Positions 3,042 through 56,466 of a stretch of DNA of 64,000 nt are shown here, piece by piece. This DNA comes from an uncultured Bacilli bacterium (GTDB lineage: Bacteria; Bacillota_I; Bacilli_A; RF39; UBA660), in assembly GCA_944358675.1 (NCBI GenBank), contig CALVRN010000005.1, positions 232 to 64,231 on the forward strand, in the 5' to 3' direction. The translations under genes were made by a program, and so were the position numbers. Position 1 is the stretch's first letter; every line of letters starts with the position of its first letter. The notes beneath the pieces are model-generated. The model searched no databases and was not told the origin of the DNA. It saw only the letters and a list, made by a program, of their open reading frames with translations.

Positions 3042-4594
<1,553 letters not shown>

Positions 4595-36248: not shown

Positions 36249-36296
36249 AGATATCACCTCTGACTAAATTATAACATATTTAATATTTAAATCAAT

Positions 36297-39271: not shown

Positions 39272-39288
39272 GTTTTATACCTATTTTT

Positions 39289-40485
39289 TTATGGTAAGTT
39301 TAAAACTTGACCAATCATTAAAGTATTACTAGTTAAACCATTTAAATTTTTTAGTTCATTAACTGTTATCCCATATCTATTTGCAATACTCCATAAACTG
39401 TCTCCACTTTTAACTGTATATGTATTAAAGCCATTTGGAACCTTTAAAACCTGACCTATACTCAAATTATCACTCGTTAAACCATTTAAGTTTTTAAGTT
39501 CACTTACTGTAATTCCATATTTATTAGCAATATTCCACAAACTATCTCCAGCTTTTACTGTATAAGTATTAGAGTTATTTGAACTAGATGAATTACTTAT
39601 TTTTAAAACCTGACCTATACTCAAATTATCACTTGTTAATCCATTTAAATTTTTAAGTTCAGCTACTGTTAACCCATATTGATTAGCTATTTTCCATAAA
39701 CTATCTCCAGATTTTACTGTATAAGTTCCACTACTAGAACCACCAGGTACTTCTAAAATCTGTCCAACACTTAAATTATTACTAGTTAAACCATTTAAAC
39801 TCTTAAGTTCATCAACTGTAATTCCATATTTATTGGCTATCTTCCATAAACTATCTCCACTTTGTACTACATAATAATTACCACTTTCAGGTAAAGATGG
39901 AATTGTCTCTCCCTCATAAGTCGCAATTACCGCATCGACAACCGCATCAACATATTCTTTATAGTTATTTTGTATTTTAGCTAAATCCTCTGGATTATCA
40001 ATAAAACCATATTCAACTATAACCGGATGAGTATTACTTCCAGTATTTCTATGCATAAAATAATAGTCTTTAGATGTATCACTTGGAAGTCTTCTTTGAT
40101 AAAACTTTCTCATCTTTTGTCCTGCATTACCCAAAGCTGTTAAAATATTAGAAGCAAGTGTACTATTATCTCTTAAAGCATATATAACCTCTGCCCCTTC
40201 AGCCCCCTGTATTCCAGAGCCAGCTGCATTAATATGATTCGAAATTACAACTACATTAGGATTATCCCCATATGCCGCAAGCACTCTATTTACTCTATCT
40301 GTTGGTGAAATAGTCTCATCAGTACTTCTAATTAAAGTAACTGGAACTCCTCTTTTTTGAAATTCTTCATACATATACTGAGCTATCATTAAAGTTAAAT
40401 CTTTTTCTTGTACTCCAGAACTACTAACAGCCCCAGGATCAGTTCCTCCGTGTCCAGCATCTACAACTACTTGTAAATTATTCAC
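39289..40485 (-). CDS. N-acetylmuramoyl-L-alanine amidase (Amidase_3) with four C-terminal LysM repeats
   Basis: VVVDAGHGGTDPGA and NHINA. Four copies of YTVKSGDSLWKIANxYGxTVxELKxLNGL. GTG start at 40485 with SD AGAGGTGG. Confidence 0.9.
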   Translation of the reverse strand: MNNLQVVVDAGHGGTDPGAVSSSGVQEKDLTLMIAQYMYEEFQKRGVPVTLIRSTDETISPTDRVNRVLAAYGDNPNVVVISNHINAAGSGIQGAEGAEVIYALRDNSTLASNILTALGNAGQKMRKFYQRRLPSDTSKDYYFMHRNTGSNTHPVIVEYGFIDNPEDLAKIQNNYKEYVDAVVDAVIATYEGETIPSLPESGNYYVVQSGDSLWKIANKYGITVDELKSLNGLTSNNLSVGQILEVPGGSSSGTYTVKSGDSLWKIANQYGLTVAELKNLNGLTSDNLSIGQVLKISNSSSSNNSNTYTVKAGDSLWNIANKYGITVSELKNLNGLTSDNLSIGQVLKVPNGFNTYTVKSGDSLWSIANRYGITVNELKNLNGLTSNTLMIGQVLNLP

Positions 40486-40541
40486 ATAACCACCTCTACA
40501 TTAAAATATGTAAAAGTGCCTATAAAGTTACAAAAAAAGAT
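40444..40541. repeat. Direct repeat DR1: amidase codons 1-14 plus 56 bp upstream (intact copy)
   Basis: A 98-bp segment repeated at 50120-50217 (same length, about 85% identical by eye) and partly at 55510-55551. Confidence 0.8.
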
Positions 40542-40596
40542 GTATAAACACCTTTTTAATCATTTTTTCAAATTAGCACTATTTAAAAATTAATTA

Positions 40597-42243
40597 CTAT
40601 TTATGCTTAAAATGTGAAACTTCAGAATTATTCTTGTTTTTATCATCTATTCTTCCATACAATAATGATAAATTATTCACTTGCATATCTCCAGAAATTT
40701 TTTCTTCTTTCCACTTAAATTCTGATAAATCAAGCATTTCTTTAATTTTTTTAGAAGCATCAGGTAAAATTGGGGCAATCAAATTAGCAATATTAGCCAT
40801 CATATAAACACATGTATAAGTGGTATTATTAAAAGCCTTTATATCCTCTTTTACTTGATTCCATGGTTGTTGGCTATCATAATACTTATTACCTAAACTA
40901 ATATAATCTAATATAGAAATAACAGCCTTTCTAAATTCTCCAGCCTCAATATGACTTCCAACCAATTTATAAATTTTAGAAGTAGTATTAGCAATATTAG
41001 AATCTATAATTCCTTCTGTAATCTTACCATCAAATTTTTTACAAATAAATGATAAATTTCTATTTACAAAATTACCTAACATTCCGACCAAAAATTTATT
41101 ATGGCATTGTACAATTTCCTCATAAGAACAATTAATATCGTCTGCCTCGGGACCATTAAATGCGAAATAAAATCTAATCGTATCTTTATCAAAATATTCT
41201 AGGAGTTCATTAGCTGTAATCAAATTCCCTTTACTTTTACTCATTTTTTCATTATTTAAATTAACATAGGCACTAGAAACAATATAATCAGGTAATCTAT
41301 ATCCTTTGTTTAATCCTGTCAAAAGAGCCGGAAAAATTGTAGTATGAAATGGAATATTATCTTTTCCGTGAACATAATAAGTAATTAAATTTTTATTAGA
41401 ATCTGATAAGAATTCATCAAAATTAATATTTCTTTCATTCGCAACTTGGGTGCCAGCAGAAAGATATCCAAGTACAGCTTCTATCCAAACATAAATTCTT
41501 TTATCATCATATCCTTTTACAGGTACTTCGATTCCCCAATTCAATTGTCTTGTTGCAGCTCTATCAATTAATCCAAGATTAAGAAACTTTTGTGCTTCAC
41601 CTACAGCATTTTTTCTCCAGTGTTCTTTATTGTTACTAATCAATTCTTGCAACACTGGTGTAAATTTAGACAATGCAAAATACAAATGATTATTGTTTTT
41701 AGTAATACATTTAGTACCACAAGTTTTACAATGTTTATCAAGTACTTCAGAACTATCTAATGAAGCATTGCAAACTTCACATTGGTCACCAGTACTTTTA
41801 CCACCACATATCGGACAAGTTCCGACAATCTCTCTATCCGATAAAAATGTTCCACATGTTTCACAGTAATCTTGAGGTACTTCTTTTGCATAAATATAAC
41901 CATTTTCAATTAATCTTTTAAAATTATCTTGAACATATGATTGATGAAAATCATCCATTGTATTTGAATACAAATCATACTCAAACCCTAAATTATCAAA
42001 AGTCTTTTTAAATTCTTGATGATAATATGCAGCAATTTCCTGGGGCGAAACACCTTCTTTCTTAGCCCTTTCAGTTATAGGTGTACCATGACAATCAGAA
42101 CCAGATACATAAATTACATTATCTCCGTTACCTCTAAAATATTTTGCTAAAATATCCCCTGGTAATAATGCAGCCAAATGACCAACATGTAAAAAATAAT
42201 TAGAATATGGCCATGCTCCTCCAATAAAAATATCTCTTTTCAT
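40597..42243 (-). CDS. metG: Methionine--tRNA ligase, two-knuckle type, no C-terminal tRNA-binding domain
   Basis: HVGHLAA (HIGH), KMSKSKGN, and four CxxC pairs in the connective peptide (CETC, CPIC, CEVC, CKTC). 548 aa. Confidence 0.93.
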   Translation of the reverse strand: MKRDIFIGGAWPYSNYFLHVGHLAALLPGDILAKYFRGNGDNVIYVSGSDCHGTPITERAKKEGVSPQEIAAYYHQEFKKTFDNLGFEYDLYSNTMDDFHQSYVQDNFKRLIENGYIYAKEVPQDYCETCGTFLSDREIVGTCPICGGKSTGDQCEVCNASLDSSEVLDKHCKTCGTKCITKNNNHLYFALSKFTPVLQELISNNKEHWRKNAVGEAQKFLNLGLIDRAATRQLNWGIEVPVKGYDDKRIYVWIEAVLGYLSAGTQVANERNINFDEFLSDSNKNLITYYVHGKDNIPFHTTIFPALLTGLNKGYRLPDYIVSSAYVNLNNEKMSKSKGNLITANELLEYFDKDTIRFYFAFNGPEADDINCSYEEIVQCHNKFLVGMLGNFVNRNLSFICKKFDGKITEGIIDSNIANTTSKIYKLVGSHIEAGEFRKAVISILDYISLGNKYYDSQQPWNQVKEDIKAFNNTTYTCVYMMANIANLIAPILPDASKKIKEMLDLSEFKWKEEKISGDMQVNNLSLLYGRIDDKNKNNSEVSHFKHK

Positions 42244-42269
42244 TAAGAATCCTCCCTTTTGATTTAAGT

Positions 42270-42298
42270 ATTATAGCATAAATGCTATATATATGCAA
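42270..42298 (-). promoter_or_regulatory. Candidate metG promoter TTGCAT-17-TATAAT with an 18-bp perfect palindrome in the spacer
   Basis: Minus strand TTGCATatatatagcatttatgcTATAAT. The palindrome tatagcat-aa-atgctata is at 42272-42289. Confidence 0.4.
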
Positions 42299-42332
42299 AC
42301 TTATATATATTATATACCATTTACACTTTTTA

Positions 42333-42977
42333 TTAATAAAAATATTTTTCTAAATATTCTTGTATTTTATTTTTTAAGTATATTTCTTTATTAATATTAT
42401 TTTTTTTATATCCCAAATAATATTCTCCTTCAGCTCCACTATATTGATTCCTATACATTAAATAAAGTATATTTTCAACAGTTAATTCTTTCAAATTATT
42501 AAAACCTATAATCGACTCTAAAATAATTTTCCACGCTAATTCTTCAAATTCTTTTATTTGATTTATATTTTTTCCTATCACTAAGTGATCTGTAGTTAAT
42601 ATATTTAATAATAATCTAACCTTCATTTCTTTTGAAGATAAAAACTCATTATCCTTTTTTATATCTGAAATAAAATATTTACCATTTTTTTTAAAAGGAT
42701 TTGATGATAATATTTTTTTTACTTCAAAAATTGTATATATTAATTTGTTTTCATAAGGAACTTCCTCATCTAATTTTAGTCCATTTTCTTCATGATAACG
42801 TATTGTTTGTAAAATAATATCTTTTTTTTCCTTCTCACTAATATTATTGACAAGTATACAAACATCCAAATCACTTGAATTAGAATCATAAATATTTGAA
42901 CCATAAAAAATCATAGTAGGACATAAATAAGCATAATTATTTAATATATATTCATAATAACTTTGACATAATTTCAT
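42333..42977 (-). CDS. Pol-beta superfamily nucleotidyltransferase with helical C-terminal domain
   Basis: FYGSNIYDSNSSDLDVCILV fits G[SG]-x(n)-D-x-D. The size and architecture resemble ANT/KNTase-like enzymes. Confidence 0.6.
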   Translation of the reverse strand: MKLCQSYYEYILNNYAYLCPTMIFYGSNIYDSNSSDLDVCILVNNISEKEKKDIILQTIRYHEENGLKLDEEVPYENKLIYTIFEVKKILSSNPFKKNGKYFISDIKKDNEFLSSKEMKVRLLLNILTTDHLVIGKNINQIKEFEELAWKIILESIIGFNNLKELTVENILYLMYRNQYSGAEGEYYLGYKKNNINKEIYLKNKIQEYLEKYFY

Positions 42978-42978
42978 T

Positions 42979-44484
42979 TTATTTATTTTCTCCTTTTATT
43001 TTTGTTGCCACTTCGATTATGTGTGTTAGCATATTATTTATATCTTTATAAGAAATATTATCATTTCCAGACATATATCTTAATACAACTATTGTCTCAT
43101 CTTCTTTTATAGCCCCCATATTATCGATGATAGGAAATCTGTGTAAATAATACTTACCTTCTTTTAATAAGTAATCATAAATTTGTGAGTTCAACGCATT
43201 AATATCATTTATATTCATTTTTGATAATTCATTTTTATTATCTACATACACAAATACAACTGAATTAATATTAACCTCATTCATTAAAATAAAATGATCA
43301 CTTTTCAATATTTGTTTTTTCAAATATTGAGCCATATCACAACGTCTTTCAATCAGTTTTCCTATGTTTTTTATTCCAAGGTTTTGCATCATAAACCATG
43401 TTTTTAAGGAAACCCAGCTTTTTGAACCTATAAAAGGTGTAATTTGACCAAAGGCAAAGTCTTCTTGCATTATCAAATCAGAAGTTGAAGTTACTAATTT
43501 AAATTTTTCTGGATCTTTAATTAATAAAGCACTCATACAATATGGAATTGCAAGTACTTTATGTGGATCTGTAGAAATACTATCGAATAATTCAATACCT
43601 TCAATTTTCTTTTTTAATTTTTCTGAAAAAGCTAAAGAGAAACCATGACATGCATCTACATGTAACCATATATTATTATCTACAGATTTCACGACTTGAT
43701 AAACAGCTTTTAAATTTTCTATTGTCATAGTACGACTATCACCAACATATGAAACAACGCACATAATTTTTCCCTTATTTTTTAATAAAGTTTCTCTTAA
43801 AGCGCTAATATCATACCTATAATTTGCTGTTTCAACTTCTATAATATTATCACCACAACCTATCCACATTAAAGCGCTTCTAATACTATAATGACCAATT
43901 CCTTTGGGTATTATAACTTTATAATTTTCTGGATTTTTAACACCATTAATCATGGTATCTTTTTTAAAATTTTCTCTAGCTAATAATAAGGCAATCGAAT
44001 TACTACCAGTCCCACCGTACGTAATTACACCTCCGACATCCCATATATTATTAATTTTTTTTATTTTATAGCCTAAGATTTCACGAAACCATTTAATAAC
44101 AGCTATTTCCATATAAGTTGCAATTGGTGCGCAAAAAGATGAATTTATTAAATTTTGCTGTAAAAAATCCGACATTATCGCCCCACTAATACCAGCTACT
44201 GAATTTCCAGCATCTGGAAAGCCCATAAAGTTTTCATTACTAAAATTAGTACAATATGGCAAAATTTCTTCGCTAAAATATTTTAGTAAATCGTTTAATT
44301 CAATACCATCTAATGGTATTTTTAACAATTGATTGATTTGCTGCTTTTTTGATTGTTTTTCTTTAACATCATTATTTAATTTAAACTTAAAACCTAATTC
44401 TAACGTTTTTTCAAAACATTTATAAGCGTATTCTTCATTTTCTTTATTTAGAATTTCTTTCACCGCTATAACTTCCCTTCCCAA
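42979..44484 (-). CDS. Group II pyridoxal-phosphate-dependent decarboxylase
   Basis: YGGTGSNSIALLLAR, HVDACHGF and the PLP lysine in STDPHKVL. The start may be the GTG at 44463 rather than the TTG at 44484. Confidence 0.85.
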   Translation of the reverse strand: MGREVIAVKEILNKENEEYAYKCFEKTLELGFKFKLNNDVKEKQSKKQQINQLLKIPLDGIELNDLLKYFSEEILPYCTNFSNENFMGFPDAGNSVAGISGAIMSDFLQQNLINSSFCAPIATYMEIAVIKWFREILGYKIKKINNIWDVGGVITYGGTGSNSIALLLARENFKKDTMINGVKNPENYKVIIPKGIGHYSIRSALMWIGCGDNIIEVETANYRYDISALRETLLKNKGKIMCVVSYVGDSRTMTIENLKAVYQVVKSVDNNIWLHVDACHGFSLAFSEKLKKKIEGIELFDSISTDPHKVLAIPYCMSALLIKDPEKFKLVTSTSDLIMQEDFAFGQITPFIGSKSWVSLKTWFMMQNLGIKNIGKLIERRCDMAQYLKKQILKSDHFILMNEVNINSVVFVYVDNKNELSKMNINDINALNSQIYDYLLKEGKYYLHRFPIIDNMGAIKEDETIVVLRYMSGNDNISYKDINNMLTHIIEVATKIKGENK

Positions 44485-45462
44485 TTACTTTAAAATTATC
44501 ATTTTATTACCATTTATTTTTATATGCCATTTTTCAAATAAATCCAAATTTATAAAATCAGATAAATTACTAATCATATTGTAATAATATTTTTCTAAAA
44601 TTTTTCTGGATTCATCACTCATTCTTTCAACATTTAAATTCTTTTTTGAAAATAAAACAGGAATTTTCCAAGTTAAAAAATTTAAAAATTTACACATATT
44701 ATCTGAAATAAACGGAATTTTTTCTATTAAGATTGGTCGATAGATTTTGGAAAACCATATCTTGTTTGCCTTTATTGTAAAAAGATTTCTAGGCAATCTA
44801 TTACCATCATTAGAATGTAAATTATAATTTATAAACTCTTCAGATTTAACATTGATAAAATCAAAAATTTTTAAACACTCTTTTTTAGGGTTTTTAATAA
44901 AATCTTCAAAAAATATTATTTTAATATTATCTTTACCAAAAGTTTCAGTATAGTCCTTAATTTTATCATAATAATTTCCACTTTCACAAAAAAATGTAGA
45001 AGAAGATTCTTTTAAAATGGGATAATTGTTTTCAAATATAAAATTATTTTTAATCCATTTATCAAATAATTGTTTTGTAGAGTTTCCCAAATTATCACTA
45101 AGATTTGAGAAGCAAGTTCCATCAAGCAAATTCATTTTAAAATCAGAATATAAACGATCAATTGGATTTCTAATTAGAAAAATAATTTTTACATTATTAC
45201 CATAGTCTGCTTTTATTTGTGATGCGGAAACATTTCTTCCCAAAATAGGATTAATTTCCATTATAACTTTTTTATTATTTCTTTTCGAATAATATCTATT
45301 TTCATACCATTCAAAACCTTTTTTTTCAACAAGTTCTTTCATACCATAATAAATTGGCTCTTTTATACCAGATAAATATATATCTGGATGCTGTTTCATA
45401 ATATCATATAATGTTGTAGTACCACATTTAGCAAAACCGACACATAATATATTTGGCTTCAT
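44485..45462 (-). CDS. PAPS-dependent sulfotransferase family protein
   Basis: 5-prime PSB loop VGFAKCGTTTL and 3-prime PB motif LIRNPIDRLYSDF. A very strong SD (GGGGGGAGGA) supports the ATG at 45462 rather than the track start at 45546. Confidence 0.8.
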   Translation of the reverse strand: MKPNILCVGFAKCGTTTLYDIMKQHPDIYLSGIKEPIYYGMKELVEKKGFEWYENRYYSKRNNKKVIMEINPILGRNVSASQIKADYGNNVKIIFLIRNPIDRLYSDFKMNLLDGTCFSNLSDNLGNSTKQLFDKWIKNNFIFENNYPILKESSSTFFCESGNYYDKIKDYTETFGKDNIKIIFFEDFIKNPKKECLKIFDFINVKSEEFINYNLHSNDGNRLPRNLFTIKANKIWFSKIYRPILIEKIPFISDNMCKFLNFLTWKIPVLFSKKNLNVERMSDESRKILEKYYYNMISNLSDFINLDLFEKWHIKINGNKMIILK

Positions 45463-45545
45463 ATCCTCCCCCCCTTTCGTAACAATTAAAATAATATTAT
45501 AAAGTTTTATTAACATTGTACTAATTATAACATATAAAATTGACA

Positions 45546-47363
45546 TTACAGTTTTATTTTTTCTTTTATTTTCTCAAATATTTTTTTTGCGCATTCTTGA
45601 TAATCGTTATTATTTAAAATCAAATCAGGGTTTAAAGGCTCCTCAAATACTGAATTAATTCCCGTAAAATCCCTAATAATATTCTTGCGAGCTTTTTTAT
45701 ACAAACCTTTTTTATCTCTTTTTTCACACTCTTCTAATGGCGTATTTAAATATATTAAGAAAAATTTATCACCAATTATTTTCTTGGCCATTTTTCTATT
45801 TATTTCTAATGGACTAATAAAAGCAGTTATACAAATTAAACCAGCTTCATTCATTAATTTAGCCACTTCAGCAATTCTTCTAATATTCTCTATTCTATCA
45901 TCATCAGAAAAAGACAAATCTCTATTTAAACCTAATCTAATATTGTCACCATCTAATAACATAGTATGAAACCCATTTAGATTTAATATTTTATCAAGTT
46001 CATTGGCAATTGTACTCTTTCCAGAACAAGATAAACCTGTAAACCAAACTGTAATAGGATTTTGACATAATGTTTTTTTTCTCTCTTCTGAAGAAATACT
46101 AATACTTTGATAAAATAAATTTTTATTTTCTAATATTTTATTTACTGTCGCACATGAACTAGTAACATGCGTTAAACGATTAATTAATATTAATGATCCT
46201 AATGATTTATTATGTTTGAACTCAGAAACTGCTATTTTTTCTAACACTTCTAAATCACAATTAATTATTTCGTTTTTACATACCTTTTCAAAATCAATTA
46301 TTTTCTCCTCAGTATCTATATCAATTTTATAATTTACTTTTCTAATATAACACAATGTACTAACAGTACCTAAGTTAATATAATAAGCACTATCTATTTT
46401 TAATTTTTCCTCATCCATCCAAAGCATTGTAACATTAAAACTGTTAGTAACATAAACATTATTATCATTTGTTAAAACGCAGCCCCTAGAAATATCAATT
46501 TCTTTATCTAAAGTTAATGTAACAGCCTCTCCATAATGGACTTTTGTAACTTCTTTATCTAAATTATACAATCTTTCAACATGAGCCGATTCTTCACTCG
46601 GTAGACAAGTAATTATGTCACCAACTTCTATACTTCCTGAAGTCACATTACCTTGAAAACCTCTGAAAAACTGATTAGGTCTACATACTCGTTGAATAGG
46701 AATAATAAATTTTTCTCCTATTTTTTTATTTACTTGAATATCTTCCAAATATTGCATAAGAGAAGTGCCATTGTACCATTTCATATTATTAGATTTAATA
46801 GTAATATTATCACCAATAGTAGCACTTATCGGAATAATGTTTAATGATGAATACTGATAATTTTCAAATAAATTTTGTATTTTCTTTTTTATATTATCAA
46901 ATATTCTTTTATCATAATCAACTAAATCCATTTTATTGACAACAACTATATAATCTTTTATTCCCATCATCATACAAATCTTGAAATGTCGTTTTGTTTG
47001 AATTTGTACTCCTTTTGTTATATCTATTAATAAAATTGCTAAATCTGCCTTGCTTGCACCTACTGCCATATTTCTTGTATATTCTTCGTGTCCTGGACAA
47101 TCAAGAACAATAAAATTTCTCTTTTTGGTATTAAAATATCTATAAGATACATCAATAGTAATACCTTGTTCTCTTTCTTCATCAAGACCATCTAGCAATA
47201 AAGCATAATCAATTTTTTTCCCATCTTTAATTTTACTATCTAATTCAAGTGTTTTTTCTTGATCTATATATAGCAATTTTGAATCATATAATAAATGTCC
47301 AATTAAAGTGCTTTTACCATCATCCACACTACCACAAGTTAAAATCTTTAACTGATCAATCAT
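45546..47363 (-). CDS. cysNC: Bifunctional sulfate adenylyltransferase subunit 1 / adenylyl-sulfate kinase (CysN-CysC fusion)
   Basis: GTPase G1 GSVDDGKST, G3 DCPGHEEY and G4 NKMD. The C-terminal APS kinase has the P-loop GLSCSGKST. Confidence 0.92.
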   Translation of the reverse strand: MIDQLKILTCGSVDDGKSTLIGHLLYDSKLLYIDQEKTLELDSKIKDGKKIDYALLLDGLDEEREQGITIDVSYRYFNTKKRNFIVLDCPGHEEYTRNMAVGASKADLAILLIDITKGVQIQTKRHFKICMMMGIKDYIVVVNKMDLVDYDKRIFDNIKKKIQNLFENYQYSSLNIIPISATIGDNITIKSNNMKWYNGTSLMQYLEDIQVNKKIGEKFIIPIQRVCRPNQFFRGFQGNVTSGSIEVGDIITCLPSEESAHVERLYNLDKEVTKVHYGEAVTLTLDKEIDISRGCVLTNDNNVYVTNSFNVTMLWMDEEKLKIDSAYYINLGTVSTLCYIRKVNYKIDIDTEEKIIDFEKVCKNEIINCDLEVLEKIAVSEFKHNKSLGSLILINRLTHVTSSCATVNKILENKNLFYQSISISSEERKKTLCQNPITVWFTGLSCSGKSTIANELDKILNLNGFHTMLLDGDNIRLGLNRDLSFSDDDRIENIRRIAEVAKLMNEAGLICITAFISPLEINRKMAKKIIGDKFFLIYLNTPLEECEKRDKKGLYKKARKNIIRDFTGINSVFEEPLNPDLILNNNDYQECAKKIFEKIKEKIKL

Positions 47364-48256
47364 TAAAAATATCCCTCCTTTTTTCTTTTTTCCATATTTG
47401 TATTATTCTCATGATCTATAACTCTACTAGTTCTTTCACTTGTTGTAGCAGATAAAGTTTCTTCAACAATTTTATCCAATGTGTCCGCATCTGAAATGCA
47501 TCCTCCAGTTAATGGATAACATCCCAAAGTTCTAAAACGTATCTTTTTTCTTGTAATTTTAGATTTATCAATATACTTTAATATTCTGTTATCATCAATC
47601 ATAATTAAGTTACCATTCACTTCAACAACATCACGTTCTTTTGAAAAATACAAAGAAACTACTTCAATTTTTTCACGTTTAATATATTCCCATATATCTT
47701 TTTCCGTCCAATTAGACAATGGAAAAACTCTAATTGATTCACCATCAAATAGCTTTGTATTATACAAATGCCATAATTCAGGGCGTTGATTTTTTGGATT
47801 CCAATTATGTGTTTTATTACGAAAGGAGAAGATTCTTTCCTTAGCCCGAGATTTCTCCTCATCGCGCCTTCCACCACCAAATGCAGCAGTAAAGCCATAT
47901 TTATCAAGTGCCTGTTTCAATGCTTCTGTTTTCATTATATCAGTATATACTGAACCATGTTCAAATGGATTAATATTATCTCGTACACCACTTTCATTAG
48001 TATACACTAGTAAATCAATACCATTTTTTTTTGCTTGCTCATCTCTAAATTTAATCATTTCATGAAATTTCCATGTCGTATCAATATGCAAAAATGGAAA
48101 TGGCGGCTTTTCTGGATAAAAAGCTTTAAGCGCAAGATGCATCATAACAGAAGAATCTTTTCCAATTGAATAAAGCATTACTGGTTTCTTACAAGTAGCT
48201 GCTACTTCTCTAATAATATATATTGCTTCAGCCTCTAATCTATCTAAATTATTCAT
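47363..48256 (-). CDS. cysD: Sulfate adenylyltransferase subunit 2
   Basis: [17 protein letters not shown], the PP-loop SIGKDSSV and C-terminal RVIDHE...KKEGYF. SD AAGGAG supports the ATG at 48256. TAATG overlap with cysNC. Confidence 0.95.
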
Positions 48257-48316
48257 GTTTCTCAACTCCTTAATATTCAATTAAAACATAACAATCATAT
48301 TTTTAACATTAAATAT

Positions 48317-49756
48317 TCATTTTCGATTAAAATCTCTTATTTTTTGTTTTGCATAACTCGTATGAGCTTTTTCTTTCCAATCATCACGTGGTCCAAATGA
48401 CAAATCATCAGTTACAATTCTAACCCTATCCTTATTTTGCAAAATATAATCGATTGGAACATATTCATCATTGACAAAAACACCAACCATTGTGTTTCCA
48501 ATATCAGTATTAAGTTTATAAGCAAAATCTATTGGTGTTGCACCTTTTGGTAATTCTATAATATCACCTTTAGGAGTATACACATAAACTTTATCAGAAA
48601 ACAATTCATTTTTAACTTGATTGACGAATTGTTGATTGTCACCAAACATTGAATTAATTTCCATTAATGATTGAAAAAATTGAAATTTTTCTTTTAAATC
48701 TTTCTGCATTATATCTCTTGCTTTACCTTTTTCTGCATCCCAATATACAGTTAATCCAAAAGAAGCTATTTTATCCATTTTAAATGTTCTAATTTGCGTT
48801 TGTACCAGTCTACCATCTAACCCAAAAACTGTTGTATGTAATGACTGATACATATTTGTTTTTGAATTACATATATAATCTTTAAATTTATTATTTACTG
48901 GATGATACTGAGAATGTATAATTCCTAAAGTTCTATAACAATTTTCAACCTCATCCACCATAATTTTTAATGCCAACAAATCATGAATGTCAGAAAGTCT
49001 ATGTCCTTCATTTAATCTTTTATATATACCATATATATTTTTGGTTCTCACTTTTATTTCATTAGGAATATTCTTATCATTTAACAAACGTTCAATTGTT
49101 CCTAACATTTCTCCTAAACATTCAGCACCATCTTCTTCTATCTTTAATTTCTTTTCTTCAATTCTTTTATACATATCAGGTTTTAAATATTGAAGTGATA
49201 AATCTTCTAGTTCAGACTTAATTCTATATGCTCCTATATAATAAGCAAGTGGTACAAATATTTCCATTGTTTCTAAAGCATTTTCTTTTTGTTTAAATTC
49301 TGATTTAAATTGTAATGTTCGCATATTATGAAGTCTATCTGCGAGTTTAATAATAATTATCCTCACATCTTCAGTTATACCAGTAATAATTTTTCTAGTA
49401 TTTGCGTAATTTTGATCTTGTTTTGAAGAAAAATTCATTTTAGCGAGTTTAGTAACCCCATCAACTAAATCAGCAATATTTTGATTAAAATCATGAGCAA
49501 TGTCTTCCTTTGTAATTCTTGTATCTTCTAATGTGTCATGTAACAAGCCAGCACAAACAGTATCCCTATCTGCATGTAATTCAGATAATATATATGCTAC
49601 ATTTAAAGGATGACTAATATAAGGTTCCCCACTTTGCCTATATTGTCCCGCATGTAAATCACTTGCATAGTCATAAGCTCTTCTTACAATTTCGATTTCT
49701 TCAGGATTATACTCTTTCAATATTCTAACCAAATCATCTAATACAATATTTTTCAT
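48317..49756 (-). CDS. Long-RSH (Rel/SpoT) paralog truncated after TGS, island copy A
   Basis: HPLNVAYIL, LLHDTLEDT, KLADRLHNMRTL, YQSLHTTV, VQTQIRT and a TGS domain. About 60% identical to the gene at 15283-16737 by eye. SD GGGTGGTG supports the ATG at 49756. Confidence 0.85.
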   Translation of the reverse strand: MKNIVLDDLVRILKEYNPEEIEIVRRAYDYASDLHAGQYRQSGEPYISHPLNVAYILSELHADRDTVCAGLLHDTLEDTRITKEDIAHDFNQNIADLVDGVTKLAKMNFSSKQDQNYANTRKIITGITEDVRIIIIKLADRLHNMRTLQFKSEFKQKENALETMEIFVPLAYYIGAYRIKSELEDLSLQYLKPDMYKRIEEKKLKIEEDGAECLGEMLGTIERLLNDKNIPNEIKVRTKNIYGIYKRLNEGHRLSDIHDLLALKIMVDEVENCYRTLGIIHSQYHPVNNKFKDYICNSKTNMYQSLHTTVFGLDGRLVQTQIRTFKMDKIASFGLTVYWDAEKGKARDIMQKDLKEKFQFFQSLMEINSMFGDNQQFVNQVKNELFSDKVYVYTPKGDIIELPKGATPIDFAYKLNTDIGNTMVGVFVNDEYVPIDYILQNKDRVRIVTDDLSFGPRDDWKEKAHTSYAKQKIRDFNRK

Positions 49757-49773
49757 ATAACACCACCCAATTA

Positions 49774-49799
49774 CAAAAAAAGCATGACACACTTATGCT
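49774..49799 (-). terminator. Terminator-like hairpin overlapping the leader-ORF stop codon
   Basis: Minus strand AGCAUaagugugucAUGCU followed by U7. The TAA of the 39-codon ORF lies at the 5-prime arm/loop junction of the hairpin. The SD of the rel paralog follows within 15 nt. Confidence 0.45.
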
Positions 49800-49912
49800 A
49801 TTATCGTCATACTTCCAAGGAAAATAAAAGTCACAAAAGACATTATATTTATGCTATATAATGATTTCCAAGAAAATAAATAAATTTTTAATGTACATCC
49901 CCCTTGCGCCAT
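49793..49912 (-). CDS. 39-aa hydrophobic leader/small membrane peptide upstream of rel paralog A
   Basis: Not in the track. SD GAGAGGGG, then MAQGGCTLKIYLFSWKSLYSINIMSFVTFIFLGSMTIIA. A 38-aa homologous ORF is preserved at 55180-55296 despite many substitutions and an in-frame 3-nt indel. Confidence 0.4.
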   Translation of the reverse strand: MAQGGCTLKIYLFSWKSLYSINIMSFVTFIFLGSMTIIA

Positions 49913-50074
49913 CTTATTTCCCCTCTCAAGAAATATTTATAACTAAATTACTACACTATTAAATGTTTTGTCAACACATTCTTCACATTTTTTACAAATT
50001 TTACCATTTTTAGATATATTTTAACATACAAAAAAATTACTTTAATATAAACTAGTTTATAAAAAATTAATATA

Positions 50075-50161
50075 TTATAAGACTTCAAGCTTGTCCATCA
50101 TACAGAGGGTATAAAGGTATCCACCATGACCAGCATCGACAACCACCTGTAAATTATTCAC
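50075..50161 (-). pseudogene. Relic of the amidase 5-prime end (first 14 codons fused to unrelated sequence)
   Basis: Reads GTG-NNLQVVVDAGHGG and then YLYTLCMMDKLEVL-stop. The SD and upstream 56 bp match 40486-40541. Confidence 0.65.
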
Positions 50162-50217
50162 ATAACCACCTCTACATTAAAATATGAAATAGTAGGTATA
50201 AGGTTACAAAAAAAGAT
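50120..50217. repeat. Direct repeat DR2 (copy of the amidase 5-prime region)
   Basis: See DR1 at 40444-40541. Confidence 0.8.
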
Positions 50218-50242
50218 AGATATTTAGTATCCATCAAATAAA

Positions 50243-51019
50243 TTAATCAAAATTCAAGCCAACTTCATAAGGAAATAAAATCGACAATTCTTTAGGCTCA
50301 TTTATAAAGATTATTCTTTTAGCATAAGCTACCATAAAGCCAAATTCAAACATCGTTCCTTTACCTATTTTACCATCAGGATTACACACAATAATTGCAT
50401 CTACTTTTTTAAATTTATTCATATGATCATATTTATGACTCCAAGCATCTCTTTCATTAATCAACTCTTGTCCTTCTAAAAGTATAAAATCAGTTCCAAC
50501 CGTTTCAGGAACTATATTCATTGTCCATGGACTAAGTACTTGAATATTATGCTTTTTTAAACATTCAATTACAGCACCAATTTCTTGCATATGCTGTTGA
50601 AAACTACCACAAATTACAACTTTTCGAAATTCCTGATTGATTAAACCATCAAACATATTCCTTTTTCCGCTTATTTCAAAACTTCTATCTAAATAAAAGT
50701 TTTCTAAATCAGGCTGAACAATATTAAAGTAAAGACCAGAGCTAACAAAAACGTGAATAATTAATTGCATTTGTTCTTCCTTAGAAAATTCTTGAAAAAC
50801 ACCAGTTGCATATAACCTTACTCTATTATTATCAACAACACCAACTACATCTCTTAATTCATCCAAAAAATCATCAATTTTTTTTAATAATTCGTTATTA
50901 ACTAAAGTTTCATTAAAAAAAACTTGTTTCTTTTTTAACAACCTAAATGTTTTCTGCTCTAATTGATATATGCTTATATCATTAGTATTAAAATGTACAA
51001 ATATTTTATCCTTTTTCAT
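50243..51019 (-). CDS. Two-domain protein with a nucleoside 2-deoxyribosyltransferase-like C-terminal domain
   Basis: The C-terminal VVICGSF...VLSP...VDAIIVCNPDGKIGKGTMFEFGFMVAYAKRIIF resembles the NDT/Rcl-type Rossmann-like fold. The N-terminal half (RLYATGVFQEF...) faintly resembles Ppx/GppA. Tentative. Confidence 0.4.
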   Translation of the reverse strand: MKKDKIFVHFNTNDISIYQLEQKTFRLLKKKQVFFNETLVNNELLKKIDDFLDELRDVVGVVDNNRVRLYATGVFQEFSKEEQMQLIIHVFVSSGLYFNIVQPDLENFYLDRSFEISGKRNMFDGLINQEFRKVVICGSFQQHMQEIGAVIECLKKHNIQVLSPWTMNIVPETVGTDFILLEGQELINERDAWSHKYDHMNKFKKVDAIIVCNPDGKIGKGTMFEFGFMVAYAKRIIFINEPKELSILFPYEVGLNFD

Positions 51020-51034
51020 AGACTTTTCACTCTT

Positions 51035-51760
51035 TTATTTTCTATCTAAATTTTTATAATTTAAGGCATTCAAATATTTATTGAGAAATACATCCTTGTT
51101 CTTTGAATTATACTGCGTAATAAATCGAGGGTGCTCAAGTGGAATAATAGTGCCAAATAAATGATATTTTTCATTGAGTTTTAATAAAAATTTATAATTT
51201 TCACCACTGCCAATACAATAACAAACACTTGTATCAATATTAAAATGAATTTGCTTACGTAACGATTCCAAAATAAATGAATAAAGCATATTTTCTAATT
51301 CCTTGTTCTCATAATAATTACAATTAACTTCATTACCCTTTGAATTAACCCTAACTATACCAAGAGGGCAAACAAAACTCATATAAAAATCATTATAAAA
51401 TTTTGAACATCCTCCATATTCGCTCATTACTTCATATAAAAAATTTGAAGAAGATTTATTCACATAAAAATTATCAATGACAATACCGGTTTCCTTTTGA
51501 ATATGGGCAGCGTCTTCAAATGGTATACCAGTAACTGCTGTACCACGACGAGCAGGAGAACTACCTAATATTAAACGACGTTTTTTATTATCATTATAAA
51601 ATTTATGATAAAATAAAGTCGTTATTTTTTTTACTTCATTTTTAGAATCGCCATTAAATGGATTTATTATTTTATATCCTTTTGGTACATCCAACGACAT
51701 TCTAGATAAAGATTGATCAAATTCCAATATTTTTTGGGCAACACTTTCTTTTTTAATCAT
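51035..51760 (-). CDS. Uracil-DNA glycosylase superfamily protein (DUF4918/SMUG2-like?)
   Basis: LILGSSPARRGTAVTGIPFED resembles the UDG-fold motif G.NPG...TGIPF. SD AAAGGAGGT supports the ATG at 51760. Confidence 0.45.
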   Translation of the reverse strand: MIKKESVAQKILEFDQSLSRMSLDVPKGYKIINPFNGDSKNEVKKITTLFYHKFYNDNKKRRLILGSSPARRGTAVTGIPFEDAAHIQKETGIVIDNFYVNKSSSNFLYEVMSEYGGCSKFYNDFYMSFVCPLGIVRVNSKGNEVNCNYYENKELENMLYSFILESLRKQIHFNIDTSVCYCIGSGENYKFLLKLNEKYHLFGTIIPLEHPRFITQYNSKNKDVFLNKYLNALNYKNLDRK

Positions 51761-51860
51761 TACGATACCTCCTTTACTCACTATTTAAATTACATATAAC
51801 AAATTAATCACTATTATTAAACAAATTTAAATTTCCAAAAATATAATTATACATAATCTT

Positions 51861-52728
51861 TTACTTTGATATTGCAAATAAATAAATTTCTATATCAGTA
51901 AGCAACACTTGAATTTTTTTAAAACCATTAGATGTAAAATCAATTGACAATTTTTTCGCCATATCAATGCCTCTATAAATATCAACAAAGTCTGTCCCGG
52001 GAATTAATAAACTGGAAATAACACTCTTCTGCGTTGAATCCAAAAAACCATTAGCTATAGAAACAATAATACCTGCATCAGATTTTAGTACTCTATTTGC
52101 TTCAGAAATAGCCATTTTAACATCAAAAAACGAAGAATTATATGTTCTTAGCGAAACATATAAATCATAACTATCATCAGATAATGATGATAAATTTTCA
52201 GCTTTCGACAAAACACAATTAGCATTAGGTATTGACTGTTTGATTTTCTTTAATCCGTTTGGTGCAATATCTACAAAAGTAATATTTTGACAATTCAAAA
52301 ATAATATTCTTGCTTCATTTCCACTCCCAACACCCACATCAACTATAATTTTATCATCTAACGGAGAATCAAATAATCCCTTTATTTAAAATTAACTTAT
52401 TTTTCACAAATTTTCACCCGGAACTTAATTATTTTATGAACTAATGTTTCACCGTTTTTAAAAATTTCAATAGCCTCATTATCTTTTAGACTTTTAGCAT
52501 ATTTATTAATTAAGAACACACATTTTCTTTTAAACATTTTTTTATAAATTTTGGGAGAATAAATACAATTTGATTTTATTCTTTTATAAAACGATACACC
52601 ATCAAATTTATGGTTAATTTTAGGACCAATTAAATATGAACCTTCGTTTTAGCAACTAAAATATTTTTATTATTAATATTTTGATTTTTCAAAAAATCAC
52701 TATAAAATAAATATTTATTTTCTGCCAT
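51861..52728 (-). pseudogene. Class I SAM-dependent methyltransferase, disrupted N-terminal part
   Basis: The intact C-terminal 158 codons begin at motif I (IVDVGVGSGNE). The frame is open only back to a TAA near 52387. Upstream to the ATG at 52728 (MAENKYLFY...) the reading is broken by several stops. Confidence 0.5.
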
Positions 52729-53398
52729 GTTTTAAAATCTTTCCTTCTTTAATATTCATTAAACTGTCTGCCTCTGATGAAAAAACATCTAAATTATGCA
52801 TCAATTCTTCTTTTTCTTTAGTTTTATCACTAATCGCAATAAACCATTTTCCAATACTTGTATCCATAAATTTGTTAAGTTCATTAGCTGTCCTAATTTG
52901 TTTTGTTTTGTATAAAGGATCACAAACAATAAATTTATCATCATCATAACCAGAAACTAAAATAGCATGATATGCACTAGCAAGTTCACCCGCAAGTATT
53001 ATTGTTTTACCATCTTTAAGTAGTTCCTTCAATAATTTAGTATCTATATCAATCCCATTTATAGCACGTGCCCCTTTCGAGACAGCCCTATCTAAATATA
53101 CTTTGTATTCATCCATTGCACATTTAAAATCATTTTCACTAAGATTTTTTTTATCATTATTAAAAAGATTTATATCAGAATGATATATAGTTGTATCTAA
53201 TCCATTTTTAGATAAATGAAAAGCTAAAGCCGAAAACGGAGTCCCAGCCATATATTTTGAACCGTATACTTTATATAATCTTCTCTCATCATACCAATTA
53301 GCCTTATCCATAATTTGATAATATTCTAAAACCATCATTAAACATGCAATCGCACATGTATCCCCTCTTTGTTTATATGGTTTAATATTTTTGTCCAT
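52715..53398 (-). CDS. Papain-fold cysteine peptidase, C39-like/BtrH-N-like (probably 5-prime truncated)
   Basis: QRGDTCAIACLMMVLEYY (Cys nucleophile context) and AYHAILVSGYDDDKFIVCDP (His). The frame stays open for 97 more codons upstream (to 53689) without any ATG, GTG or TTG. Confidence 0.5.
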   Translation of the reverse strand: MDKNIKPYKQRGDTCAIACLMMVLEYYQIMDKANWYDERRLYKVYGSKYMAGTPFSALAFHLSKNGLDTTIYHSDINLFNNDKKNLSENDFKCAMDEYKVYLDRAVSKGARAINGIDIDTKLLKELLKDGKTIILAGELASAYHAILVSGYDDDKFIVCDPLYKTKQIRTANELNKFMDTSIGKWFIAISDKTKEKEELMHNLDVFSSEADSLMNIKEGKILKHGRK

Positions 53399-53702
53399 AT
53401 TTCTATTCCTTTCCTGTTTTAATTTTTCTAATGCCCTAATAATAATATCTCTAAATGCTTTCCTATCTGGATGCTCTAAAATAAAGTAAGCATGTCTTAT
53501 TTTATAATCATCAGAAATTATATAATGTTTTATCTTTTTTAATATTTCTTTTTCAGAAATGTTAATATATTTTGAAAATTCTTTTTTTAATCGACTCTGA
53601 AAAACTATCTCATCATTCGCATGATACTTACTTTTTAAATATTCTTTGAATTTCCATATATTTTTATCCTTTGTTTTTAGCCTATAAACTCAAAACACCA
53701 TT

Positions 53703-55141
53703 TTATTTTCTATTAAAATCTCTTATTTTTTGTTTTGCATAACTAGTATGTGCTTTTTCCATCCAATCATCTCTAGGACCATAAGATAAATCATCAGTAA
53801 CAATTCTTATTCTATCCTTATTTTGCAAAATATAATCGATTGGAACATATTCATCATTGACAAAAACACCGACCATTGTGTTTCCAATATCAGTATTAAG
53901 TTTATAAGCAAAATCTATTGGTGTTGCACCTTTTGGTAATTCTATAATATCACCTTTAGGAGTATATACATAAACTTTATCAGAAAATAGTTCATTTTTA
54001 ACTTGATTGACAAATTGTTGATTATCACCAAACATTGAATTAATTTCCATTAATGATTGAAAAAACTGGAATTTTTCTTTTAAATCTTGCTGCATTATAT
54101 CTCTTGCTTTACCTTTTTCAGCATCCCAATATGCAGTTAATCCAAAAGAAGCTATCTTATCCATTTTGAATGTTCTAATTTGTGTTTGTACTAATCTACC
54201 ATCTAGTCCAAAAACGGTTGTATGCAGTGACTGATACATATTCGTTTTTGGATTACATATATAATCTTTAAACTTATTATTTACTGGATGATATTCCGAA
54301 TGTATTATTCCTAAAGTCCTATAACAATTTTCAACTTAATCAACCATAATTTTTAATGCAAGTAAATCATGAATATCAGAAAGTCTATGTCCTTCATTTA
54401 ATCTTTTATATATACCATATATATTTTTTGTCCTTATTTTTATCTCATTATGAATATTCTTATCATTTAACAAGTGTTGAATCGTAGCCAACATTTCTTT
54501 TAAACATTCATCACTATCTTCTTCTATCTTTAATTTTTTTCTTCAATCCTTTTATACATATCTGGTTTCAAATATTGTAATGACAAGTCCTCAAGTTCAG
54601 ACTTGATTCTATATGCCCCTATATAATAAGCAAGTGGTACAAATATTTCCATTGTCTCTAAAGCATTTTCTTTTTGTTTAAATTCCGACTTAAATTGCAA
54701 TGTCCTCATATTATGAAGTCTATCAGCTAATTTAATAATAATTATTCTCACATCTTCAGTTATACCAGTGATAATTTTCCTAGTATTTGCATAATTCTGA
54801 TCTTGTTTTGAAGAAAAATTCATTTTAGCAAGTTTAGTAACCCCATCAACTAAATTAGCAATATTCTGATTAAAATCATGAGCAATATCCTCTTTTGTAA
54901 TTTTTGTATCTTCTAATGTATCATGTAATAAGCCGGCACAAACAGTATCCCTATCTGCATGTAATTCAGATAATATATATGCTACATTTAAAGGATGACT
55001 AATATAAGGCTCCCCACTTTGCCTATACTGTCCCTGATGTAAATCACTTGCGTAGTCATAAGCTCTTTTTACAATTTCGATTTCTTCAGGATTATACTCT
55101 TTCAATATTTTAATCAAATCATCTAATACAGTATTTTTCAT
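53703..55141 (-). pseudogene. Rel/SpoT paralog, island copy B, inactivated
   Basis: Near-identical to 48317-49756. A GAG-to-TAA nonsense change lies at 54336-54338 (MVD*VE versus MVDEVE), and a 1-nt deletion in the T-run at 54534-54540 splits the ORF into the 178-aa and 215-aa track fragments. Confidence 0.85.
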
Positions 55142-55179
55142 ATAACACCCCAACAGATTATAAAAAAAGTATGACACAC

Positions 55180-55296
55180 TTATGCTATCAGTGTCACACT
55201 TTCAAAGAAAACAAAAGACACAAAAGGAATTATATTTATGTTATATAATAATTTACAAGATAATATTTTTTTTAATATACCTCTCTTTTGTATCAT
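55180..55296 (-). CDS. 38-aa homolog of the hydrophobic leader ORF (upstream of the rel pseudogene)
   Basis: MIQKRGILKKILSCKLLYNINIIPFVSFVFFESVTLIA. The stop again lies in an AGCAU...AUACU hairpin followed by a U run. Confidence 0.3.
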   Translation of the reverse strand: MIQKRGILKKILSCKLLYNINIIPFVSFVFFESVTLIA

Positions 55297-55464
55297 ATTA
55301 TTTTCCTCTCACAAAATATTTATAAATAAATTACTACATTATTAAATACCTTGTCAACACATTTTGAACATTTTTTTACAAATTTCTTCATCTTTTTACC
55401 ATTTTAGCATATAAAAAATTACTTTTGCATTAAAGTAAACATATTGCTTAGCAAATAAACAATA

Positions 55465-55551
55465 TTATAAGACTTCAAGCTTGTCCATCATGCAGAGGGT
55501 ATAAAGGTATCCACCATGACCGGCATCGATAGCAACCTGTAAATTATTCAT
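55465..55551 (-). pseudogene. Second relic of the amidase 5-prime end
   Basis: Reads MNNLQVAIDAGHGG and then YLYTLCMMDKLEVL-stop. The SD region is deleted. Confidence 0.55.
55510..55551. repeat. Direct repeat DR3 (shortened copy of the amidase 5-prime region)
   Basis: Matches the coding part of DR1 and DR2. The upstream part is missing. Confidence 0.7.
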
Positions 55552-55566
55552 AAAAAGATATTATTT

Positions 55567-56457
55567 CTAATACCATTTTTTATTTAAACCAAACTTATTT
55601 TTATTACTAACCATAACTACATCTATCTGCATAGGACACAAATGATTAAGTGGATGTAATAGTTTTGGCGCACACTTTGAAATCTTGACTACTCCACCAG
55701 TTACTAAAATATAACCATCATTTAATCTTCTTATTCCCCTAACATTTTTAGGAAAAAACTTCTTTTTAGGACTAATTACACCTCTTCTAAAATTTCCTAA
55801 TCCAAAAGGCACACATCCATCATGAGTATGACCACACATAATTAAATCATAATCTTTTAATAAATTAGTGCTTTTCTCATCATCACTAAACTCTGGGGAA
55901 TGAATCAAAGCCAAAGTAAGTAAACTCTTATTAATATTTTTGTAAAGTATATCATGCTTTTTTAAATCATCATAAAAAGCTCTAAAATTATAATTTTTAC
56001 CAAAATAATATTCTTTAGTTTCAGTATAACCCATAAGCCATATGTTATCATCAACATATATATCATTATCAAGAAGTGTAACTCCATTTATTTTTCGAAC
56101 CACATTACTAATATTTTCTATATGACAACTATGATTTTTCCTATGAATATAATCATGATTGCCTAAGATAACAAATGTTTTAGAAATTTTACCAGAAGTT
56201 TCAAGTAAATTTTTTAATTTTAATAATGACTTAGAATTATGAATTTCTTGAACAAGGTCTATTAAATCTCCTACAAAAAACACATAATCAGCTTTTTCAT
56301 CTAAAATTCTATCTTTAAGTAAATCAATTTTTCTCAAACTTACGTTATCACTAATATGAACATCGCCAATAACTAATAATTTTAAATCTTTTCTAACTTT
56401 TTCATTATATAAATTTATATATCTAACTTGTAAATAACTATCGAAAAATAATCTCAT
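55567..56457 (-). CDS. Metallophosphoesterase (calcineurin-like)
   Basis: LLVIGDVHISD, FVGDLID, ILGNHD and CGHTHDG motifs. Confidence 0.85.
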   Translation of the reverse strand: MRLFFDSYLQVRYINLYNEKVRKDLKLLVIGDVHISDNVSLRKIDLLKDRILDEKADYVFFVGDLIDLVQEIHNSKSLLKLKNLLETSGKISKTFVILGNHDYIHRKNHSCHIENISNVVRKINGVTLLDNDIYVDDNIWLMGYTETKEYYFGKNYNFRAFYDDLKKHDILYKNINKSLLTLALIHSPEFSDDEKSTNLLKDYDLIMCGHTHDGCVPFGLGNFRRGVISPKKKFFPKNVRGIRRLNDGYILVTGGVVKISKCAPKLLHPLNHLCPMQIDVVMVSNKNKFGLNKKWY

Positions 56458-56466
56458 ATCTCCCCC

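Follow-up and report, generated by a model that had tools for sequence, protein, structure and literature searches.

The 5′ end of a LysM amidase gene occurs three times in a 64,000-nt stretch of an uncultured Bacilli bacterium (contig CALVRN010000005.1 of assembly GCA_944358675.1, positions 232 to 64,231; hereafter the window). The two copies distal to the intact gene are probably attL scars, the left attachment junctions left by elements encoding large serine recombinases (LSRs), and the DNA between the copies is probably a stack of recombinase-less islands that moved by accretion and cis-mobilization. A preliminary description of the window had proposed insertions at the 5′ end of the amidase gene, and comparison with relatives supports that reading.

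Between 39 and 59 kb, every gene is on the minus strand. In order of transcription, gmk and a metallophosphoesterase (MPE) gene are followed by F3 and a tail, a broken rel paralog, a C39 peptidase fragment, and genes for a methyltransferase, a UDG-family protein, and an NDT-like protein. Next are U2, F2, and a second tail, an intact rel paralog, cysD, cysNC, genes for a sulfotransferase, a pyridoxal phosphate (PLP)-dependent decarboxylase, and a 214-aa protein, metG, and finally U1 and F1, which form the start of the LysM amidase (table 1). Here, F denotes amidase codons 1–14 and U the 56–75 nt preceding them; segment A lies between copies 1 and 2, and segment B between copies 2 and 3. As first described, all three copies are in direct orientation on the minus strand. 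Copy 1 (40444–40541, with homology extending to 40546) belongs to the intact amidase, which has a GTG start at 40485. Copy 2 is 86–90% identical to copy 1 over 98–103 nt, and copy 3 is reduced to the 42 coding nt. After the Gly-His-Gly-Gly (GHGG) codons, each of the two distal copies departs from the amidase and continues for 14 codons as YLYTLCMMDKLEVL before a stop, again as first described. This junction of F and tail is not due to chance because it is also present in five other genomes.

An insertion site within the amidase gene

We scanned relatives for the MPE, the amidase catalytic domain, and junction patterns, and obtained ∼80 loci (labeled L plus a number) from uncultured gut Bacilli named Candidatus Coprosoma, CAG:822, and similar. 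Locus L009 is on OZ007038.1, L020 and the overlapping L084 are on OZ007025.1, and L014 is CAG:822. L001 and L011 are from one metagenome-assembled genome (MAG), the closest relative found (amidase 98.5% and deacetylase 99.7% identical).

Four types of junction are present across the loci (a slash marks the break). Type 1, GGTCATGGTGGA/TACCTTTATACC with an arm beginning TACC, occurs twice in the window, twice in L001, and in L006, L009, and L048. Type 2, GGTCAT/CAACGTATC (arm beginning CAACG), is found in L014, L004, and L084; type 3, GGTCAT/CAAGCATAA (CAAGC), in L036; and type 4, GGACATGGC/TGATACAGTTATGCC (TGATAC), in L040. The downstream DNA is unrelated among types, and all breaks are within ∼9 nt of each other. 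Because unrelated junctions share one breakpoint, random deletion or duplication is an unfit explanation for them. The four attL types and at least five types of attR, the junction at the other end of an element, break at the CAT(GG) of the GHGG codons, which indicates one crossover position, and comparison of the attL and attR of the same element places the crossover inside CAT(GG).

Genes encoding LSRs abut this position. In L011, the amidase starts only at the GHGG codons, and 25 nt upstream is the end of a 537-aa protein that its Resolvase, Recombinase, Zn_ribbon_recom, and DUF4368 domains identify as an LSR. LSR genes are also directly upstream of the amidase remainder in L020, L027, L039, L040, L041, and L057, and the proteins are 37–98% identical to the LSR of L011 (identified with Pfam in L011 and L040 and with tblastn in L020, L027, L039, L041, and L057). 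In L011 and L040, the LSR ends 5–25 nt before the amidase remainder. Locus L043 has the same kind of junction at a contig end, where only the junction is represented. Integration into the 5′ end of the amidase, as first proposed for the window, is thus seen in at least eight genomes. Fragments of LSR genes remain in L036 and L048. No LSR gene adjoins a scar in the window.

The tails resemble arms of LSR attachment sites. The P arm of attR and the P′ arm of attL are imperfect palindromes of each other; for example, CTCCGTGTTA is in both arms of type 2. In reconstructed attP sites, the attachment sites of the elements, inverted-repeat matches are 21/35 for type 2, including a run of 10 nt, and 19/33 for L040. 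When reverse-complemented, the type 1 tail of the window pairs with the P arm of the related L041 type (GT.TAAAGGTA.CCA; 18/31). Because of this pairing and the shared breakpoint, the tail appears to be an attL scar's P′ arm rather than an extension of the coding sequence, and the matching P arm would be expected to read roughly CAGAGGGTATAAAGGTATCCA then CATGG. A scan for the type 2 pattern matched only OZ007025.1, CAG:822, BRZ_FF bin53, and E40 bin28; the left end of the LSR element in sister MAG bin9 was not recovered. We considered and rejected the F-plus-tail frame as a small gene or leader peptide, as one copy in L001 has lost its start codon and has a mutated GHGG, and the tail matches an LSR P′ arm.

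Flanks of the locus are conserved, with gmk–MPE on one side and amidase–deacetylase–pgm on the other, and the content between them is variable. Five genomes (L010, L019, L021, L022, and L023) have nothing between MPE and the amidase, which are 104–784 bp apart, and therefore provide the empty sites that the insertion reading calls for. Other loci have leuS, two LD-carboxypeptidase genes, and metG (L002); MazG and a 13 kb polysaccharide cluster (L003/L013); rel and a YcaO/C39 cluster of the ribosomally synthesized and post-translationally modified peptide (RiPP) type (L009); or NUDIX, methyltransferase, UDG, and NDT genes (L014). That content differs among genomes was the other expectation set against simple local duplication. 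L002 had at first suggested a native copy 1 from which the distal copies derive. This order was reversed, because empty sites exist and because L009, L014, and the empty site L010 share a hairpin upstream of their leftmost copies, both of which mark the MPE-side copy as the original.

Besides the five loci with adjacent genes, two comparisons give precise empty-site alleles. Locus L040 has a cleanly delimited element of 9.5 kb that encodes Rep, FtsK, and an LSR and is bounded by GGACATGG/CTGATAC and GTATCAAGGG/CATGGTGGG, and the gene is uninterrupted in L033 and L035. In the second, OZ007038.1 (L009) is paired with OZ007025.1 (L084 and L020). The order in OZ007025.1 is rel, the RiPP cluster, U and F joined to a type 2 arm, a 10.1 kb LSR element, and an attR joined to the amidase remainder. 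In OZ007038.1, this island (91% identical) precedes an intact U and amidase and has a type 1 scar on its MPE side. Accretion of an LSR element next to an island is thus directly visible in the gene order of OZ007025.1.

An IS91-type transposase was rejected as the agent because it adjoins a scar in L004 only. In 11 loci of distant relatives (L058, L059, L061, L063, L065–L069, L072, and L073), the match to the amidase begins at residue 92–94, before GAEVIYALR, and in six of these (L058, L059, L061, L065, L066, and L073) an LSR gene is 150–3000 nt upstream. The pattern suggests that the same amidase family has another LSR attachment site, near residue 93.

Contents and origins of the islands

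Searches of both segments and of the other scanned open reading frames (ORFs) of the window detected no integrase, recombinase, or transposase, consistent with what was first reported for the segments (Pfam on ORFs of at least 120 aa from 1 to ∼59 kb; tblastn with two LSRs over the entire window). Four ORFs at 59–64 kb are outside the Pfam scan; for the same genes on contig L075 of the same species, no recombinase family is recorded.

Table 1. Features of the amidase locus in the window (all on the minus strand).
Feature	Positions	Basis and remarks
Intact Amidase_3 gene with four LysM repeats (target)	39289..40485	Pfam
F1: amidase codons 1–14, putative reconstituted attB	40444..40485	
U1: conserved amidase upstream region, right end of segment A	40486..40560	Conserved in L002, L016, L001, L009
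Segment A identity block	40451..50137	0 differences to BRZ_T bin41 across its covered parts (40451–42046, 45490–50137)
metG, 548 aa	40597..42243	Pfam; 94.7% identical to metG of L002, same position relative to amidase
Cargo: 214-aa protein without Pfam match, PLP-dependent decarboxylase, sulfotransferase, cysNC, cysD	42333..48280	Pfam
rel_A: short RelA/SpoT homolog (RSH) paralog, HD + RelA_SpoT + TGS, 491 aa	48317..49792	Pfam
rel module A leader: copy of metG upstream region and degenerate metG start (ATG 49912–49910)	49793..50071	
Tail 2: putative element-side P′ arm of LSR attL scar, type 1	50072..50119	Junction comparison, arm pairing
U2+F2: upstream region and codons 1–14, putative attL B arm; right end of methyltransferase–UDG–NDT island	50120..50217	
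Island B2: NDT-like (50243–51019), UDG-family (51035–51781), methyltransferase (51861–52337)	50243..52376	Pfam
Island B1 remnant: decayed RiPP-type cluster, C39 peptidase fragment (52715–53398), 46-aa fragment (52397–52537)	52380..53686	
rel_B pseudogene: 1-nt deletion and in-frame stop	53703..55177	
rel module B leader: metG upstream region and metG codons 1–5 (MIQKR; ATG 55296–55294)	55178..55461	
Tail 3: putative type 1 attL P′ arm	55462..55509	Junction comparison, arm pairing
F3: amidase codons 1–14 without upstream region, ATG 15 nt past MPE stop	55510..55551	Same junction in sister MAG (L001)
Conserved left flank: MPE (55567–56457) and gmk (56467–57147)	55567..57147	Pfam; synteny in >15 loci

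Segment A appears to be a discrete block that was recently transferred between species and ends at the crossover. Mismatches to BRZ_T bin41 begin at 50138, in codon 8 of F2, and at 40450, in His codon 12 of F1; at both sides identity ends within 13 nt of the LSR crossover. Outside the block, proteins of bin41 and the window are only 72% (MPE) and 90% (amidase) identical. The remainder of the amidase has 95% nucleotide identity to sister MAG locus L011 in an alignment that ends at 40458, and its 5′ end is identical to that of bin41 down to 40451. Because identity to bin41 ends at the crossover while the remainder matches L011, the working amidase is a chimera, with its upstream region and codons 1–11/12 derived from segment A and the remainder from the resident chromosome. 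From 75 nt upstream through the GHGG codons, U2+F2 shows no difference from the corresponding region of the intact CAG:822 amidase (L014). Therefore, segment A looks to have been inserted at the core of a CAG:822-like allele, in which methyltransferase, UDG, and NDT genes precede an intact amidase.

The preliminary description also held that elements supply a replacement 5′ end. The working 5′ end does lie in the segment A block, but intact LSR elements supply none; the 5′ end is carried by recombinase-less islands only and is most simply captured chromosomal DNA. U1 contains a Shine-Dalgarno sequence (GAGGTG) and an AT-rich hairpin after metG. A scan for promoters and terminators found none in the amidase upstream region, and we do not call U a promoter. 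At the core of the rebuilt attB, His codon 12 (40452–40450) is CAC in the window and CAT in bin41, bin9, and close strain L088, so that the CAC is a change private to the window. The LysM repeats (39279–39880) are a 4-copy tandem array of ∼150 nt units at the DNA level. At 451 and 456 aa, the amidases of L088 and L014 exceed that of the window by ∼55 residues, and the alignment to L088 has one gap of about a repeat length, which suggests that the extra length is a fifth LysM repeat.

As to cargo, segment A does carry metG, a sulfation operon, and a rel paralog as listed in the preliminary description, but metG is doubtful as classic cargo. It also adjoins the amidase in L002, so it may have been captured from a chromosome. 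In the searched collections, an identical MetG protein appears in 107 blocks versus 27–34 for flanking proteins. The cargo set of group II PLP decarboxylase, sulfotransferase, cysD, cysNC, the 214-aa protein, and methionyl-tRNA synthetase (MetRS) is unusual and could yield a sulfated amine.

Segment B, first described as a single element with four accessory genes and a dead rel paralog, does hold these genes but appears to be two older, decayed islands fused by a deletion, because its halves match L009 and L014, respectively. From 55550 to 52380, the window is 97–98.5% identical to L009 across the tail, rel_B, the C39 fusion gene, and a 108-aa gene; from 52376 to 50121, it is 89% identical to L014 across methyltransferase, UDG, NDT, and U+F. 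In L014, the genes of island B2 are between a type 2 attL scar and an intact amidase. Relative to L009, the B1 remnant (97.6–98.5% identical) has two internal deletions and stops ∼27 nt into the YcaO gene; the RiPP-type cluster is intact in L008 and L084. The deletion evidently took the end of one island, the scar between them, and the start of the next, as judged from these alignments. The homolog of rel_B is intact in L080 of the same species as well as in L001 and L009, and is broken differently in L078, also of the same species. Decay of segment B therefore appears to be continuing within the species.

The distal repeat is 1.9 kb long because both islands share a rel module. It spans F, a leader of 330 nt, and rel up to the stop codon (48316–50222 versus 53702–55555), with copies 92% identical and spaced ∼5.39 kb apart. 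Module A is 100% identical to that of bin41 and module B is 98.8% identical to that of L001. Both leaders hold the metG upstream region of the L002 type (L002 11975–12075), which argues that the module was assembled once from a metG-bearing locus, likely then spreading with different cargo. The intact metG of the window (start at 42243) begins MKRD and has an upstream region different from the remnant in the rel leaders. The remnant and the true metG start share AAAAGAGA, as if the block from rel to the 214-aa gene had been inserted into the 5′ end of metG.

Directly before the rel start, both leaders end (49793–49870 and 55178–55255) in a conserved hairpin and T run (AGCATAAGTGTGTCATGCTTTTTTT) that looks like an attenuator. 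In the leader region, the count of predicted promoters and terminators is near that of shuffled sequences. A regulatory RNA was rejected, as an Rfam search (E ≤ 1) of the leader and repeat returned only two sub-threshold chance matches and the hairpin fits no Rfam family. A third short RSH gene (15283–16782; 499 aa) has HD, RelA_SpoT, and TGS domains without C-terminal regulatory domains. Located beside mreCD and radC and sharing 62.7% identity with rel_A, it probably represents the core rel; three rel-type genes are thus within the 64 kb window.

At 4576–6995 of L001, an extra mini-island with a TnpB-like fragment, a 73-aa ORF, and a Fic/Doc protein gene is between two copies of F plus tail. 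The window has one such copy at this position, as after recombination between repeats. A Fic/Fic_N gene of the window (35172–36257), near a tRNA-Thr gene (36418–36491), encodes a protein 100% identical to that of OZ007038.1, with the neighboring Pgm at 88.6%, and is missing from close strain L088; it looks to be another recently moved gene. A 365-aa protein encoded at 9472–10569 matches the mTERF family (E = 2.5e-41), which is known mainly from organelles and uncommon among bacteria.

Routes of movement and competing explanations

A route of movement can be reconstructed from the observed site, scars, alleles, and identity blocks. Diverse LSR integrative elements use the His-Gly pair within the GHGG codons, 12 codons from the amidase start, as attB, the chromosomal attachment site. 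Integration splits the amidase, joining its upstream region and ∼12 codons to a P′ arm (attL) and the recombinase end of the element to the remainder (attR). The window contains three islands: B1 (rel_B and a decayed RiPP cluster), B2 (methyltransferase, UDG, and NDT-like genes), and A (rel_A, a 3′-phosphoadenosine 5′-phosphosulfate (PAPS)/sulfotransferase cluster, and metG). Each ends in a captured amidase upstream region and first codons, so that its right end rebuilds a working amidase and a fresh attB. A new LSR element could integrate at this rebuilt attB and excise with the neighboring island via the outer attL and its own attR; the composite would transfer and integrate at the attB of a new host. 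Later exit of the LSR element through the inner attL would leave the island stranded. Accretion and cis-mobilization of this kind would require only canonical reactions of attP with attB and attL with attR.

Several observations weigh against this route. The tail sequence has no match in metagenome or viral contig collections, and no intact type 1 element with a P arm exactly matching it was found among the relatives. Only ∼48 nt, the tail, is recognizably derived from an element; the rest is a remnant of the metG upstream region, the rel paralog, and metabolic cargo. The window has neither an LSR gene nor an excisionase or transfer gene, and the islands may no longer be mobile. Occupied loci L002 and L003 are without a left scar. 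The evidence from bin41 consists of two low-coverage MAG contigs (∼4×). The route also presupposes an event that first put a second amidase 5′ end beyond a scar, and it may require a type 2 LSR to accept a type 1 P′ arm.

Among competing explanations, the one that fares best, and that we nonetheless consider unlikely, is the mechanism of the preliminary description, in which the islands behave like staphylococcal cassette chromosome (SCC) cassettes. An island would circularize alone and an LSR encoded elsewhere would insert the circle at attB via the junction of U and 12 codons with the tail, so that the replacement 5′ end would arrive with the island. The site on such an island would be a B-P′ hybrid, equivalent to attL, and canonical LSRs recombine attP with attB, or attL with attR together with a directionality factor, and not attL with attB. 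Moreover, the intact elements seen in relatives carry no 5′ end, and we know of no circular junction for such islands. Nevertheless, a cassette-like mechanism predicts the same architecture and the same identity boundaries, and fits islands without a recombinase, for which tandem recombinase-less SCC cassettes are a precedent (10.1101/336396).

Homologous recombination fits less well. Conserved flanks around a variable region, as at many recombination hot spots, and the scarless L002 and L003 are in line with islands having been exchanged through the flanks after DNA uptake, with the scars being old and irrelevant. However, both ends of the block of 100% identity are at the LSR crossover rather than scattered in the flanks, and we regard this explanation as improbable. 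A local tandem duplication of the rel module and amidase 5′ end, followed by divergence, could account for the direct repeat and its spacing, but it is very improbable: each copy is much closer to its counterpart in another genome than to the other copy, cargo varies, and empty sites exist. Last, although repeats could mislead short-read assemblers, an artefact or chimera is next to inconceivable, and the arrangement is real, given its presence on at least 22 contigs from other samples and comparable architectures in OZ007038.1 and OZ007025.1, which are chromosome-level MAG records with titles that name the long-read assemblers metaFlye and hifiasm.

Known systems and significance

Stacking of recombinase-less islands is already known; what is new is the site, the host lineage, the capture of a 5′ end, and the cargo. 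Accretion of cis-mobilizable elements (CIMEs) with integrative and conjugative elements (ICEs) has been described for tyrosine recombinases, as with ICESt1 and ICESt3 of Streptococcus thermophilus (PMC5704250). As in that system, recombinase-less islands are in tandem arrays between att-derived direct repeats at a target gene, and a functional element is next to such an island in a relative (OZ007025.1). Pfam on all ORFs and tblastn with LSRs found both segments to lack a recombinase, as CIMEs do. With regard to cis-mobilization by an accreted element, the accretion in OZ007025.1 and an identity block ending at the cores are observed here. The systems differ in that CIMEs involve tyrosine recombinases and the 3′ end of a gene, whereas here an LSR acts 12 codons into a 5′ end. 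Here, each island has an attL at its left, and its right end is a rebuilt attB (B-B′) without a P arm, not an attR. Hardly any of the island DNA can be recognized as a decayed ICE or integrative and mobilizable element.

SCC elements integrate at the 3′ end of rlmH through Ccr recombinases, with repeats of ∼15–20 bp. Composite islands of staphylococci include pseudo-SCC cassettes that lack ccr (e.g., 10.1101/336396). LSR chemistry, the stacking of cassettes with and without a recombinase at one gene end, and direct repeats that contain the gene end and keep the gene intact are shared features; in the window, F1, F2, and F3 bound two recombinase-less segments. Here, however, insertion is at the 5′ end of an Amidase_3/LysM gene, the repeat is ∼100 bp and includes the upstream region, and intact elements disrupt the gene.

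The target genes of the skin element and SPbeta are sigK and spsM, respectively. Both are LSR elements of Bacillus subtilis (PMC6957869). Like them, the elements in L011, L020, and L040 look to be LSR elements in a coding sequence at a conserved motif, with excision restoring the gene. The window differs in having only scars and stranded islands, with the gene restored by a captured 5′ end and not by excision. LSRs of the Tn4451/Tn5397 type are TnpX and TndX. By Pfam domains only, the LSRs at the amidase resemble these (Resolvase, Recombinase, Zn ribbon, and a C-terminal DUF4368), and the element of L040 is small with Rep and FtsK genes; target site and cargo differ. No paper in the literature collection searched ties an LSR to an amidase attB.

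It is conceivable, though we think it unlikely, that the islands are a distinct class of recombinase-less cassettes that hitch with LSR elements, each carrying the upstream region and first codons of its target, and that on arrival repair a cell-wall amidase otherwise disrupted by LSR elements and recreate attB for another round. If so, uncultured gut Bacilli would have an SCC-like system at the 5′ end of a gene. Segment A would then act as a cassette that carries a rel paralog, a PAPS/sulfotransferase/decarboxylase cluster, and a MetRS gene jointly across species, and the MetRS could be a self-resistance copy against a sulfated product.

In the little-studied, uncultured gut lineage Candidatus Coprosoma/CAG:822, the GHGG codons of the LysM amidase are an insertion hot spot that had not been described before, and the responsible enzyme family, LSRs, can now be named. 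The locus offers a clean natural case of how recombinase-less islands may be built and moved by serine recombinases, with a 9.7 kb block, identical between species and ending at the crossover, that supplies the 5′ end of a host gene. It also provides candidate attB/attP pairs for new LSRs, which are wanted as tools for genome engineering. Movement of islands by this route would explain the spread of a rel paralog, a sulfation cluster, and a MetRS gene between species.

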